Source of the DNA: Methanobacteriota archaeon
Lineage (GTDB): Archaea; Thermoplasmatota; Poseidoniia; Poseidoniales; Poseidoniaceae
NCBI GenBank assembly: GCA_018650165.1
Contig: JABIGM010000016.1
Coordinates: 1 to 39,904, forward strand
DNA: 39,904 nt
Reading direction: 5' to 3'
Part shown: piece by piece, positions 4,275 to 9,458 of the stretch
Numbering within the stretch: position 1 is the first letter of the stretch
Layout of the letters: each line of letters opens with the position of its first letter
Notes under the pieces: model-generated
Databases searched by the model: none
Told to the model about the DNA's origin: nothing
The model's input: only the letters and a program-made list of their open reading frames with translations
Program-made: the position numbers and the translations under genes

Positions 4275-5222
4275 ATGGGAGGCGGCCGCCGTTCGAGACC
4301 AAGGGAGCGTCCCAAGCGTCCACTGGGGCTATCTGAAGAAGGGTCTCCAACAAAATTGAATCAGCCCCCCGAACAGCGCGATGATGGTTGGTTTATTCCT
4401 GAACCTATTTCCAATCGACTTTATCAGAAGTCTGCTCTTGGCAAACCGATTGACGGCGGGATTTTATTAACTGCAGAGGAAGTAATGTTCTGTCATTGGC
4501 ACAGACATGTCCCGCTTCCCGAAGGATGGGTGGATGAACGACTGGCAGAAGATCCAAACTTTGCCCATAAGGCAGTAGCATTTGATGTTGTACGCAATGC
4601 TGGTGAAAAGGTGGTTCCGCTGGATGGACGTTGGTTGCGTTGGTCAAGAGAGAGCCACCCTAGCATGGGTGGTCCCGTTGCTGCAATTCGCTGGGCGAGG
4701 GCAAGAGAACATCTTGATATGGATGATTTACTTTCTTGGGCAAAGGACCTAGAACATGAAGGCATGATGGCAGAATTAGCCATAGTAGACGATGAAATGG
4801 ACGTCACGATGTACCGTTTGTCATTAATTGACCCGAAAGGTGATTTACAGCCGGCAACAAGTGAAAGTCACCCCTTACTTGGAGTCGAACATCTTTCTCG
4901 ACGTTTCCTGCGTGATGATGAATTAAATTGGATAAACGGGGTCCAAAATCCTGTTACTGAGTTGTTTGGTGAATTAAATTCACGTGGCCTATTGATGCGG
5001 CCTGGATTCAAATTTGGGTGCAGATGGAGAGTTTATTCCACTCCAGTAGATGTTGACCACGCACCTTGGTTGATGCAGATGGAGATGGATGCTCCATCCA
5101 ACTGGGAGGGCATTTGTCTTTCAGTACGCCTCGCCGAAGGGGTCAACAAAGGCTGGGTCGTTGCTCTCCCCAGAGATGACTGGAATTTCTTGCTCATCAG
5201 GCGCCACCTTCCCGGTAGATGA
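4275..5222 (+). CDS. endA: tRNA splicing endonuclease (duplicated-domain type)
   Basis: GFKFGCRWRVY...DHAPW...VRLAEGVNK carries the Tyr/His/Lys triad; the N-terminal structural repeat ends in LAIVDDEMDVTMY. Confidence 0.92.
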   Translation: MGGGRRSRPRERPKRPLGLSEEGSPTKLNQPPEQRDDGWFIPEPISNRLYQKSALGKPIDGGILLTAEEVMFCHWHRHVPLPEGWVDERLAEDPNFAHKAVAFDVVRNAGEKVVPLDGRWLRWSRESHPSMGGPVAAIRWARAREHLDMDDLLSWAKDLEHEGMMAELAIVDDEMDVTMYRLSLIDPKGDLQPATSESHPLLGVEHLSRRFLRDDELNWINGVQNPVTELFGELNSRGLLMRPGFKFGCRWRVYSTPVDVDHAPWLMQMEMDAPSNWEGICLSVRLAEGVNKGWVVALPRDDWNFLLIRRHLPGR

Positions 5223-7172
5223 GCGAATACCAAGAACGACCCATAGCGTAGAAAGTGCCAGAGCTACGGGAATTAATTTTGCAGGTCTCGTCCACTCTTC
5301 AAATGCAGATTCTTCCATATCATTTGCAACTAATTCAATTTGAATGGTGTATCTATGCCCGGATTCAGATGCTAAAATTATTTCACCTTTGACAATCATT
5401 CCATTGGATAGCAAACCTGACGGGCTAATCTCTAGAGTGATATCCGAACCTTTCGTCAATTTTTGATTAACTTCAGTAGATGCAATTCTTGCAAGGGGTC
5501 CGTCAACACCTACTAGCCAAATCTGAGATTCATTTCCAATCAGTTCCACTGGTATATTTACAATTGATGAATCGGTAACTGGTATTGTTGATTTATACTC
5601 AGACTCCAGAGGAATGTTTCCGAAAATTTCGAATTCATGCCGTACATCAATCGGTGTTCCGAAATCACAAGTAATGGTCCCCGTTATCAGACCAACGACC
5701 CCAATTACACCAACGGCTGAGAACTTTATTTGACTGTCTTCAACTACTATATTTCTACCATCACTACTATCAAGGTCATAAATTATACCGGGGCAGTCTG
5801 CTATGAGTTCTATACTATCGGTGGGGGTTAGTACAGAACCATAATCTGGCATATCAACATCACTTCCATGGCCACAGCCGGGTGATGAAAATTCGACACT
5901 AGGAGTTCCATTTTCAACCGTAATGTTGGCGACCCAATCAACAAGTATTCCATCTCGGTTTCTAATTAATACACCTTCGGAACCAAAACTTCCCCCGTCA
6001 TTAAATAAATCACTTGCTTCACCTTCGCTGGTTCCAGCAACCATATTCTGTTCACCATCGGCTTCGATAACCTTTAGCCACGCCCTTTCTGGATGTGAAT
6101 TGACCAAGTTATCTGCTAAATCACCCGACCCTAAATCCTGTTGAAGAACCAGTATTCCGTTTCCTGGTAAATGAGAATCATATCCGTAATCACTGCGGTA
6201 TTCAATCCAAACATATTCTTCAGTTCCAATTGGAATTTTCAAGGCAGTTCCACCCTCTGACAAACCAGTAAATGTGTAAGTTGGGCCACTACAACTTGTG
6301 TTTTGCAGCCATTTTAATTCGATCTCTTGATGACGTTCACCACCAATTAACTCGATACTAGGGCTTGTAGGGAGAGCCGGCCAAACACCATTTCCATTCC
6401 AATTCCCACTAGCCATTATGTCCCATTTCCCAACACCCTTCCAGGCTTGATTTACGGTGGCATCATGCACTGGATACAAGTCAGCTGCACCTAACTGATG
6501 GTACATTTCATGCATAACAGTTCCAAAGTTATTGGATGAATACTGGCTGGCGATTGTATAGTGGGAGATTTGTATATCATCTGGCAACTCAACAATTTCT
6601 TCAATCGATGAAAAGTGTGACCAAATACGTGAGGATGAACCTCCACCGTCTTCCTGCGGTTTAATACAGTGGAGAATCAGAAACCGATCAACCCAGCCAT
6701 CGTTGTTGAGGTCGTACCTGTCCCAAGAAACTTCATCTTTTACTTCTAAGACAACTTCTTGGGCCAAAGTGTGGGGGTTAACTCCTTTCCTCCCAACATC
6801 TTTCTCGCCATTGACATCATGCCCATAATCTCCCATTGCATAATCAGTAGTAACTATTCGTTCATGGTAGTCAATAGTAAGTGTTGAATCAGGTGCTATG
6901 CCTTGGTTTAAGTAATTTAGAGCAGCGGTGTCAATCAGATTAGATGCACGCTGTTGATTACAATTCTCTACCTCTACTTGGTCGGGAAAATCAATCAAAA
7001 CCACAAACCATCTCTCGTTTTCAGATACTCCTACTAAGGGTCCTTCTTCCGATTTATCAATCGTGATAGCGTGTTCTTCCACCCAGTCATTTAGCGCTTC
7101 ACCATTTAGGTATGCACTAACTGTGAGAAGTGATAGTACAATGGCAATTGGCCAACCTATGACTGGTCGCAT
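5121..7172 (-). CDS. M6 family (immune inhibitor A-like) metallopeptidase, membrane anchored
   Basis: GTVMHEMYHQLGAADLY (HExxH zincin), WDIMASGNWNG, EYVWIEYR, GILV; hydrophobic N- and C-terminal helices. The 3' end overlaps the endA 3' end by ~100 nt. Confidence 0.9.
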   Translation of the reverse strand: MRPVIGWPIAIVLSLLTVSAYLNGEALNDWVEEHAITIDKSEEGPLVGVSENERWFVVLIDFPDQVEVENCNQQRASNLIDTAALNYLNQGIAPDSTLTIDYHERIVTTDYAMGDYGHDVNGEKDVGRKGVNPHTLAQEVVLEVKDEVSWDRYDLNNDGWVDRFLILHCIKPQEDGGGSSSRIWSHFSSIEEIVELPDDIQISHYTIASQYSSNNFGTVMHEMYHQLGAADLYPVHDATVNQAWKGVGKWDIMASGNWNGNGVWPALPTSPSIELIGGERHQEIELKWLQNTSCSGPTYTFTGLSEGGTALKIPIGTEEYVWIEYRSDYGYDSHLPGNGILVLQQDLGSGDLADNLVNSHPERAWLKVIEADGEQNMVAGTSEGEASDLFNDGGSFGSEGVLIRNRDGILVDWVANITVENGTPSVEFSSPGCGHGSDVDMPDYGSVLTPTDSIELIADCPGIIYDLDSSDGRNIVVEDSQIKFSAVGVIGVVGLITGTITCDFGTPIDVRHEFEIFGNIPLESEYKSTIPVTDSSIVNIPVELIGNESQIWLVGVDGPLARIASTEVNQKLTKGSDITLEISPSGLLSNGMIVKGEIILASESGHRYTIQIELVANDMEESAFEEWTRPAKLIPVALALSTLWVVLGIRSSTGKVAPDEQEIPVISGESNDPAFVDPFGEAY

Positions 7173-7203: not shown

Positions 7204-8499
7204 TCAATTGCTATTGTGAGTCAACAATATGCCCAGTTTTTTGATTTCTGCAAGTAGCGAATCTTTCGGGCTAGTAATCCAGGCTTGCCGGGGTTGCAAG
7301 TTTAGTCCGAATGGTATTTCTTCACCATAGATTATCTCAGTTACATTAGAATTCTCTATAATTAGAAGAGATCTAGCAACCATTATTTTTTCACTCCAAG
7401 GGTCGACTAATGAGGACATTGCTAATGCTAGGTCAATTGTTTCGTTATCTGTTCTAGCCGCTGACAAATGTGCGATGTCCAAGCTTTCAGTCTCACAACC
7501 CAAAAATCGTAGTGAATCGATGTAGGATGCAGGAAATGAATCTATCATACAACCTGAAAATACTAACTTAGTAGCCTGGAATCTATTTGTTACATCGAGT
7601 AAATGATCCTGTTCAATAGGGCTTCGACATATCGATTTGTACGAAACCATGCCCATTCCTTTCAGTGGTTCAATTCTTGGAGATGTTCCAAAACATGAAC
7701 AATCAACATAAAGCACACGATGCGTTCCACCGTCTTCATCTAGCAAGTCTAGTAGTCCATGTGCAACAGGCATACTGGCCCTGAAAAACCTCCACCCAAC
7801 TAGTTCAACCAAACCTGAAGCAAAGCATGTCAATGCGACAAGAAGTCCTGGGAGACCAGATGGAATAACTAACCACAACAACATCAGCATCATACCATGA
7901 ATCCTCAATCTCCACCAACTAGCATTACCCTCCCAAAGTAATTTTGACATTCCAGCAACCATCACTACACTCATTGCAGCAAGAACCAAAATAATCGCCC
8001 ATGATATCGAAATTGAAATTCTGAGAATCTCAGCCGCATCATAGCGCCCTACTAGGCCATTGACATCATTGAAAGAGTGCCCATAGGAATACAGCCAGGG
8101 CAAGAATATCGTAGTAGTAAACACAAGTGAACCAAAAGCCAGTCCCCCCATAATAACCATCCACACAACAAATGCTCTTCTTTCACTAGGAAGGAGGCCT
8201 GAGCGGGCAAATGAGTACGCCTGTACCATTGCAAATGGTGCCGCAGTTAGTAGGCCGAGTAATGTGGCACTCAGCCATCGAGTACCCGCCCATTCATCTG
8301 GCGAGAATATATTGATGCAAGCATCGGCACATGGATCTAATTGCAACATTGCGTAGTGTAGTAATTCATCAATTGAAAGTGACCATATCCCGGTCAAAAT
8401 TATTACCAAAATTATGACTGTAGTCAATCGACGTGTGAACTCATCGAGGTGAGATTGAACGGGGCGCCTGTCGTCGCTAGACAGGTGCAAATCATTCAT
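7204..8499 (-). CDS. tatC: Divergent TatC with a C-terminal Cys-rich soluble extension
   Basis: SHLDEFTRRL, IFSPDEW, P..MVQAYSF..SGLLPSERR and six TM segments match TatC; about 190 extra C-terminal residues. Confidence 0.78.
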   Translation of the reverse strand: MNDLHLSSDDRRPVQSHLDEFTRRLTTVIILVIILTGIWSLSIDELLHYAMLQLDPCADACINIFSPDEWAGTRWLSATLLGLLTAAPFAMVQAYSFARSGLLPSERRAFVVWMVIMGGLAFGSLVFTTTIFLPWLYSYGHSFNDVNGLVGRYDAAEILRISISISWAIILVLAAMSVVMVAGMSKLLWEGNASWWRLRIHGMMLMLLWLVIPSGLPGLLVALTCFASGLVELVGWRFFRASMPVAHGLLDLLDEDGGTHRVLYVDCSCFGTSPRIEPLKGMGMVSYKSICRSPIEQDHLLDVTNRFQATKLVFSGCMIDSFPASYIDSLRFLGCETESLDIAHLSAARTDNETIDLALAMSSLVDPWSEKIMVARSLLIIENSNVTEIIYGEEIPFGLNLQPRQAWITSPKDSLLAEIKKLGILLTHNSN

Positions 8500-8504
8500 A
8501 ATAA

Positions 8505-9458
8505 TCAGACCAAATCAGTCGACTTCTTTTCCGCACGTACTTGGACAACAGTCCTGTAAACTCCGAAAATAGCCCAAAGTGTACACATTGCAATCAGAAG
8601 TGTGTAGCCCCAAGGTAGTTCGGTATCAACAGCCCAACCAAGACCAATTGCTAGGCCAAGTGAAAGAACACCTCGGCGGATGCCTTGTGGCAGAGCCAGA
8701 CGCATATCGAGATGAGGTGGACCTCCGCCAAATCTGCGCTCATAGAATTCTCCTTGCAGAATTGCTGCAATAATAAGAATGGAAAGGGTTGTCCAAAAGT
8801 AGAGGTTTCCTTGTTCCAAATACCCACTTGCTAGTTCTGCCTGATGCTCTGCCTCAAGTTGCTCATCGCTCTTTTGACCGAATAATGACTCATAATCTCC
8901 AACACTAATTGTTCTGAGACTCGGGTCTTCGTCAAGAGTCGCAGTACCTGGTGCACTGACGGTGAATGAGAGAGTGGTCCAATGGTCGCCAGCATCTGGC
9001 AACCCGCTTCCATCAACAGCATTGCCGGCTAAAGAAAAGTGAATATCTCCAACATCTTCTGACGGTGCAACCCATGGAATAACCCAATCATTGGCAGGTG
9101 TACTTTGAGAAAGTGCGCCACCGGAATCTGCAACTTCTTTTGTTCCATCAACAACGGTAAATACGCCTGCACCATAATCCCAAATCATGAATCCACCAAT
9201 CGAGTTAGATGAATGCACTAGGCTAATTGTCAGGTCATATGTTTCACCGACTTCGTAGGCACGGGGAACGCCAGAAATTGAAAGAATTAGTTCAGTTGAT
9301 GGCGAACCGCCTGCGCCATGACAAGTACATCCATCCTCCGGGACAATTCTGTCACCTCCATCCTTTATCCAAGGTGGTCCTTGTGAGTTTCCAAAGGCCG
9401 GAGCAGCCAGCAGAATAGCCAGAGTCGCAACCAGCAGGACAGAGAACCTACGGGACAT
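8505..9458 (-). CDS. Exported Reeler-like (choice-of-anchor V-like) domain protein with a CxCH motif and C-terminal TM region
   Basis: Signal MSRRFSVLLVATLAILLAAPAFG; NSQGPP, GCTCHG, GVPRAYEVGETYDLTISL, GGFMI, W..PWVAPSEDVGDIHFSLAGNAVDGSG..DAGD; about three TM helices at the C-terminus. Confidence 0.75.
   Translation of the reverse strand: MSRRFSVLLVATLAILLAAPAFGNSQGPPWIKDGGDRIVPEDGCTCHGAGGSPSTELILSISGVPRAYEVGETYDLTISLVHSSNSIGGFMIWDYGAGVFTVVDGTKEVADSGGALSQSTPANDWVIPWVAPSEDVGDIHFSLAGNAVDGSGLPDAGDHWTTLSFTVSAPGTATLDEDPSLRTISVGDYESLFGQKSDEQLEAEHQAELASGYLEQGNLYFWTTLSILIIAAILQGEFYERRFGGGPPHLDMRLALPQGIRRGVLSLGLAIGLGWAVDTELPWGYTLLIAMCTLWAIFGVYRTVVQVRAEKKSTDLV

Follow-up and report, generated by a model that had tools for sequence, protein, structure and literature searches.

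The Tat system exports folded, often cofactor-loaded proteins. The C-terminus of TatC is cytoplasmic, and archaea usually have no TatB. Two or more TatC copies with divided labour occur together in the genomes of Bacillus subtilis (TatCd/TatCy) and of haloarchaea (TatCo/TatCt), where, as far as is known, each paralogue is a complete receptor or a tandem fusion. To our knowledge, the Tat machinery has no built-in cofactor or sensor.

HdrA's N-terminal domain binds a [4Fe-4S] cluster, referred to as HA3 or A3 (PMC9012536, PMC13580544, PMC13518236), and is located on a mobile arm, where it shuttles electrons (PMC13580544, PMC13518236). In the crystal, Cys197 of the partner subunit provides one HA3 ligand in trans (PMC9012536). 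In state 2 of the cryo-EM study, Sec197 belongs to a Cys-Sec feature located between FAD and cluster A3 and is not described as cluster-bound (PMC13518236), so the N-terminal domain may be able to hold the cluster alone, four in-domain Cys sufficing.

The window analyzed here is a stretch of 39,904 nucleotides from a Marine Group II (MGII) archaeon of the order Poseidoniales (family Poseidoniaceae). Among planktonic archaea in surface waters of the ocean, the host group is the most abundant. One gene of the window encodes a TatC paralogue, for which we use the working name TatC-X, consisting of a six-helix TatC core followed by a 180-aa cytoplasmic C-terminal domain that resembles HdrA's N-terminal domain (Table 1). 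We regard this architecture, together with the homology to HdrA, as highly probable. The initial annotation, made from the sequence of the window, knew of no description of such an architecture; likewise, no published description of a TatC with such a domain was found in the literature searched, in which the one ‘TatC’ match in a paper on MGII turned out to be a primer string.

Table 1. Positions of TatC-X, its domains and residues, its neighbours and the second TatC (positions refer to the window unless a locus is named)
Feature	Position	Strand	Basis and remarks
TatC-X, whole gene; TatC paralogue with C-terminal HdrA-N-like domain	7204..8499	(-)	431 aa + stop, ORF translation
TatC core, aa 1-245, six TM helices, both termini cytoplasmic	7765..8499	(-)	Pfam, AF2, Foldseek
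H17-L-D-E20, counterpart of E. coli TatC H12/E15; twin-arginine signal-binding site, N-terminal portion	8440..8451	(-)	phmmer alignment to 9dzz_A
C57 and C61, first extracellular loop	8317..8331	(-)	Invariant in 21 aligned sequences and in the window's family; absent from sister-family (f2) forms
F97...G101-L-L-P-S-E106-R-R, counterpart of E. coli F94...E103-R-R; signal-binding site, first cytoplasmic loop	8176..8211	(-)	Alignment
HdrA-N-terminal-domain-like core, aa 258-380 (model residues 11-133)	7360..7728	(-)	VIA, hhalign
C267-S-C269	7693..7701	(-)	Aligned with HdrA C-x-C (C11/C13, 5odc numbering)
C291	7627..7629	(-)	Counterpart of HdrA C46, one-residue indel offset
C317 (V-F-S-G-C)	7549..7551	(-)	Aligned with HdrA C71 (V-V-A-A-C)
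C335	7495..7497	(-)	In 76/98 relatives; several have I or V
C-terminal beta-alpha-beta subdomain, aa 385-431	7207..7347	(-)	ESM Atlas alignment, profile coverage and shorter frames; missing in many f2 forms and one subclade of the window's family (f1)
Upstream neighbour, 5 nt off: membrane-anchored choice-of-anchor V domain protein	8505..9458	(-)	NCBIfam NF041895, 71.7 bits
Downstream neighbour, 31 nt off: M6 (InhA-like) metallopeptidase, signal sequence and C-terminal TM anchor	5121..7172	(-)	Pfam PF05547, TIGR03296
Short TatC paralogue, 250 aa	G000:C12:10069-10686, locus L001:1429-2181	minus	Contig 12, 111 bits

RESULTS

TatC-X retains the signal-binding site of TatC and lacks the TM4 and TM5 motifs

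The part of the gene in which the extension had been noticed (7204-7722) corresponds to aa 260-431 of TatC-X plus the stop codon. That a TatC with six TM helices precedes this extension had been proposed on reading the sequence, and Pfam, AF2 and Foldseek agree on it. The Pfam family TatC (PF00902) matched aa 16-205 with an E value of 1.3e-13 and 51.7 bits against a gathering cut-off of 25.1, spanning profile positions 1-189 of 208. In the AF2 model, which was built from 21 relatives and had a pLDDT of 81.7, six long helices (14-54, 67-101, 104-140, 155-184, 193-211 and 217-239), all before residue 240, are followed by an alpha/beta domain. When this model was submitted to Foldseek, solved TatC structures came first (9e01_A, 4b4a, 4hts and 9dzz_A; prob 1.0, TMt 0.64-0.69), the alignment took in the entire TatC chain, and HdrA chains ranked after the TatC structures. 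TatC-X did not reach the NCBIfam equivalog cut-offs for TIGR00945 (36.4 vs 132.7 bits) and TIGR01912 (31.6 vs 192.6 bits). About 80 full-length relatives, as protein clusters from many samples, were found with identities of 32-98%; databases label them plain TatC, and one of them carries the NCBI name Candidatus Poseidoniaceae.

By alignment to E. coli TatC, residues H17, E20, F97 and E106 of TatC-X are equivalent to H12, E15, F94 and E103, respectively, confirming the earlier claim that the signal-binding His, Glu, Phe and Glu are kept. All four are invariant in the TatC-X relatives (for H17 and E20, in 21 aligned sequences). The loss of the TM4 Glu and of the TM5 TPPD motif had also been claimed correctly, the TM4 F-E/Q-x-P and TM5 (S/T)-P-P-D motifs being missing from every TatC-X sequence aligned. 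TatC-X is a TatC paralogue that retains the signal-binding site without the motifs that ordinary TatC has in TM4 and TM5. The two Cys residues in its first extracellular loop, C57 and C61, probably form a disulfide pair.

The C-terminal domain resembles the HdrA N-terminal domain

The initial annotation had likened the C-terminal part to HdrA's N-terminal domain and to MvhD. The former likeness was recovered by VIA, Foldseek, ESM Atlas, profile search and hhalign. When the domain was modelled in isolation (pLDDT 93.6), Foldseek returned HdrA chains with prob 0.94-1.0, at a weak E value of ~2e-3, and in the structure comparison by VIA the top seven rows were all HdrA, from three species (Z 9.1-10.0, rmsd 2.9-3.1 Å over 119-122 residues, 14-15% identity), the next row, at Z 6.6, being a generic Rossmann-like fold. 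A structural search restricted to PDB representatives yielded nothing beyond generic Rossmann-like matches (Z ≤6.8); of the searches against solved structures, those by Foldseek and VIA alone brought up HdrA. A shape search of the ESM Atlas returned the domain's own family first and then HdrA-family models, with TM 0.68-0.73 over model residues 13-184. Since the latter models align across residues 13-184, the last 47 aa of TatC-X are probably, as judged from the model, the degenerate remains of the Rossmann unit that comes first in the FAD domain of HdrA. Apart from this degenerate beta-alpha-beta unit the rest of HdrA is not present in TatC-X, in which we found no FAD-binding thioredoxin-reductase domain, no ferredoxin domains and no Cys197 or trans-ligand domain of the Cys197 type.

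At the level of sequence, a profile of 33 domains was run over 301 Thermoplasmatota genomes and gave only two matches outside Poseidoniales (E 2.6e-5 and 1.1e-4 per genome). Both fall in HdrA N-domains adjoining MvhD genes, and one of the two matched genes was confirmed as HdrA by its match to 5odc_A (residues 3-149, E 7e-50). Comparison of the TatC-X domain with three HdrA N-domains by hhalign gave 92% and E 6.7e-7 over 119 columns, in which C267/C269 fall on HdrA C11/C13 and C317 on C71, and C291 lies one residue off C46. Neither phmmer nor hmmsearch with the C-terminal domain alone gave a named sequence match in the PDB, and Pfam named no HdrA or other family in any of the 33 domain members. 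The sequence support for homology to HdrA is hence moderate, in view of the low identity, the hhalign result and the lack of a Pfam or PDB sequence match. A relation to MvhD/FlpD at the sequence level was not supported: hhalign gave 0.8% against two MvhD sequences, and the MvhD/FlpD family PF02662 appeared in the Pfam search for one of the 33 domain members, at E 0.14. The HdrA N-domains were taken from a locus (L014, genome G004) of a Thermoplasmatota archaeon outside Poseidoniales, in which MvhD is encoded in a gene cluster together with a double HdrA fusion (796+ aa) and a further HdrA of 589 aa.

Four Cys residues of the domain are conserved across diverged relatives

The Cys residues are placed as the initial annotation had given them, with C267 and C269 followed by 21 residues, C291, a further 25 residues, C317 and, later, C335. 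Their conservation across relatives was borne out for C267, C269, C291 and C317 and failed for C335 (Table 1), which is not invariant and therefore probably no ligand. The other four were invariant in 21 full-length relatives and also in a diverged set of 33 domain sequences, in which identity to the window's domain goes down to 20-30% (lowest, about 20%). Of the 98 relatives that are 330 aa or longer, 96 showed the pattern CxC...C...C, and the remaining two are N-truncated fragments. In a subclade of the window's family (L016, L017 and L018; genomes G169, G222 and G310), TatC-X is only 337-342 aa long and its domain ends soon after the fourth Cys, with all four Cys retained. This four-Cys conservation across diverged relatives is beyond chance. 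Conserved motifs other than Cys in the domain are DPW and FG.

Since the domain follows TM6 of the TatC fold, it is placed in the cytoplasm. From their positions and conservation, we consider it fairly likely that the four invariant Cys bind a [4Fe-4S] cluster. Against a cluster, the four Cys could hold Zn, and an exposed cluster would be labile in aerobic organisms of the surface ocean.

The domain is always fused to TatC in assembled genomes and is confined to Poseidoniales

A library of 1.84 billion representative proteins contained only 39 relatives of the domain. Among those that are at least 360 aa long, most have the domain at about residues 250-430, behind an N-terminal part of TatC length; the rest are shorter pieces. 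Among the 301 Thermoplasmatota genomes, the window's family had the domain in 39 of its 42 genomes and the sister family in 16 of its 21; elsewhere, only the two HdrA matches described above turned up. Domain-less forms of TatC-X (242-273 aa) occur in some small-genome genera of the sister family. As these forms nest within domain-bearing ones in the tree, the loss is secondary, and the domain is dispensable in the genera that lost it.

We weighed whether the fusion could be an artefact of assembly or gene calling that joined two genes. A 1.3-kb metagenome contig (L052:1-100) speaks for it: immediately upstream of the Cys domain its frame is broken by stops, whereas a different frame stays open, which represents either a frameshift error or a rare split form. 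Against it, the extension is part of one open frame in more than 50 independent genomes, and about 80 protein clusters from many samples show the same. The frames carrying the domain were 369-480 aa long except for contig-edge pieces in G112 and the 337-aa form in G169, and a single match, in G219, had an internal stop (one TGA). For two short database matches, P0093 and P0096, the distance to the end of the contig is 44 and 86 nt, and one of them has its frame still open. None of the assembled genomes searched had the domain as a gene of its own. We exclude an assembly artefact, and the chance that two genes were wrongly joined by assembly or gene calling is negligible; in assembled genomes the domain is always fused and is confined to Poseidoniales.

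The second TatC of the genome has lost complementary motifs

The initial annotation had called for a check on a second canonical tatC in the genome. A second copy was found (Table 1), but both of its signal-binding glutamates are missing. The genome carries one TatA, and exactly two TatC matches, of these same two kinds, were present in 57 of the 61 genomes of the order. We aligned the short paralogue with Aquifex TatC, 14 orthologues from across the order and eight single TatCs of other Thermoplasmatota. At the position of E. coli E15 the orthologues have K, R, G or Q, and the F...E103-R-R loop is replaced by an insert of ~20 aa without conserved Glu. On the other side, the TM4 F-Q/E-x-P motif (FQAP in this genome) and the TM5 S-P-P-D-P motif are retained. 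All four motifs were present in all eight outgroup TatCs. Genome G028 (L048 and L051) comes from a sister family within the same class; of its two TatCs, one shows all four canonical motifs and the other is short and Glu-less, and neither has the Cys domain. In the tree, TatC-X formed one clade (100/100), and the short paralogues including the G028 copy formed another (95/87).

The view of TatC-X as a specialised TatC paralogue could thus be upheld in that a second tatC exists, and had to be amended in that the other copy is itself degenerate at the signal-binding site. Because of this degeneracy, the pair is to be seen as two complementary paralogues rather than as a specialised copy beside a normal one. 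As the losses are complementary, the motifs suggest a shared receptor job, and a heteromeric receptor made of both paralogues is a real possibility, which we put forward tentatively. In some other Thermoplasmatota (L039 and L042-L045), the open frames around single TatC genes span 480-1199 aa, being extended far at the N-terminal side by sequence that contains a hydrophobic stretch; these may be N-terminal fusions.

Gene neighbours of TatC-X and a candidate Fe-S cargo

TatC-X lies between genes for a choice-of-anchor V domain protein and an M6 metallopeptidase. The former has an invariant G-C-x-C-H-G motif and three C-terminal TM helices. It adjoins TatC-X in all cases and has a very conserved cytoplasmic loop (EFYERRFGGGPPHLD...PQGxRRG). 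The metallopeptidase gene was directly downstream of TatC-X in every relative examined, including the domain-less form. The adjacency of the three genes, with gaps of 5-48 nt, is kept in relatives with domains only 25-30% identical, and also where the upstream context differs, with ETF instead of PntAB. The wider region, with tRNA endonuclease, PfkB and archease, is syntenic as well, so adjacency is weak evidence of shared function. The choice-of-anchor V protein was considered as a Tat substrate, which found no support, since only about 8 of its 15 orthologues have an N-terminal RR and the internal RR was TR or QR in three. A complex prediction of TatC-X with aa 205-317 of this neighbour, run without controls, scored 0.00, which speaks neither for nor against binding.

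Elsewhere in the genome (G000:C16, locus L050:1456-2316, + strand), a gene directly upstream of a cytochrome b gene encodes a Rieske-like protein with the motifs CTHLCC...CICHSS and the Tat signal NRRQFLRYG. Pfam did not recognise it at E 0.001. Its motifs indicate that it is likely an Fe-S Tat cargo and, because it bears a textbook Tat signal, at least one Fe-S cargo of the organism requires a functional Tat receptor. Judging by the alignments, only TatC-X among the two TatCs of the genome has the residues known to read the RR signal.

DISCUSSION

The reading that we favour on balance, as somewhat probable, is that TatC-X is a receptor-type TatC with an HdrA-derived [4Fe-4S] module, which probably partners the other paralogue, the module making its activity dependent on Fe-S, redox or oxygen. 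TatC-X would act as the substrate receptor of Poseidoniales, reading twin-arginine signals, and the domain descended from HdrA would place a [4Fe-4S] cluster beside the face at which signals dock. The short paralogue would be the TatA-docking partner, supplying the TM4 and TM5 motifs that TatC-X lost. The Fe-S module may then tie receptor activity to Fe-S supply, redox or oxygen status, which would be relevant to the Rieske cargo. Its more specific versions are held with less confidence: that the cluster gates export or reports the state of the cell to it appears doubtful, and an obligate two-paralogue receptor whose HdrA-derived cluster works as a checkpoint, with cofactor cargo exported only in a permissive Fe-S, redox or oxygen state, is improbable.

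Two other readings accept the fusion as real. The domain may no longer bind Fe-S, its Cys holding structural Zn or disulfides, and may serve as a platform for docking or oligomerisation, for instance in place of TatB. The aerobic life of Poseidoniales fits this, and so does the disappearance of the redox partners of HdrA, the FAD domain being absent and the Rossmann remnant degenerate; the trans ligand Cys197 of HdrA is missing too (PMC9012536), and the conservation extends to the non-Cys motifs DPW and FG. However, the four Cys lie at positions of the HdrA cluster-ligand type, are the most conserved feature of the domain and are retained even where it is truncated, and, as can be inferred from state 2, where Sec197 is not described as cluster-bound (PMC13518236), the N-terminal domain may hold the cluster alone. 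We consider a domain devoid of Fe-S unlikely.

Alternatively, TatC-X may stand outside the general Tat translocase, as a dedicated insertase, assembly factor or redox anchor for its two neighbours. Its loss of the TM4 and TM5 motifs would agree with such a role, as would the adjacency of the three genes in distant relatives, which persists where the upstream genes differ and beside the domain-less form. The same adjacency may nevertheless be mere conservation of gene order, the wider region being syntenic. Moreover, the twin-arginine binding residues are strictly retained in TatC-X, neither neighbour has a conserved RR motif, and, as the other TatC is without RR-binding residues, some TatC must read the Rieske signal. 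Taken together, a dedicated role for the two neighbours seems distinctly unlikely to us.

The two complementary TatCs, one of them with an Fe-S-type domain, offer a natural setting where recognition of the signal and recruitment of TatA appear split between polypeptides. TatC-X is also a case in which the shuttle-cluster domain of HdrA has been reused outside electron bifurcation. The presence of an HdrA-type domain on TatC hints that the export of folded proteins is tied to Fe-S or redox status in Marine Group II.

TatC-X shares with TatC of E. coli (9dzz/9e01) and Aquifex aeolicus (4b4a/4hts) the six-TM fold and the motifs H-L-x-E and F...E-R-R, whereas it differs from ordinary TatC by the additional 180-aa cytoplasmic domain and extracellular Cys pair and by the lack of the TM4 and TM5 motifs. 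With HdrA's N-terminal domain (5odc, 7bkb, 8rvu), its domain has in common the fold and the pattern beta-strand-CxC...C...beta-strand-C; on the other hand, it is carried by a subunit of a membrane translocase and not by a bifurcating flavoprotein, the identity is about 14%, and the host is aerobic and non-methanogenic. MvhD/FlpD, which the initial annotation assigned to the same general fold class as the HdrA N-domain and whose gene adjoins the HdrA genes used here, showed no detectable sequence relation to the domain in these profile comparisons. In contrast to TatCd/TatCy and TatCo/TatCt, the two TatC copies of Poseidoniales show complementary losses, and one of them bears an Fe-S-type domain.
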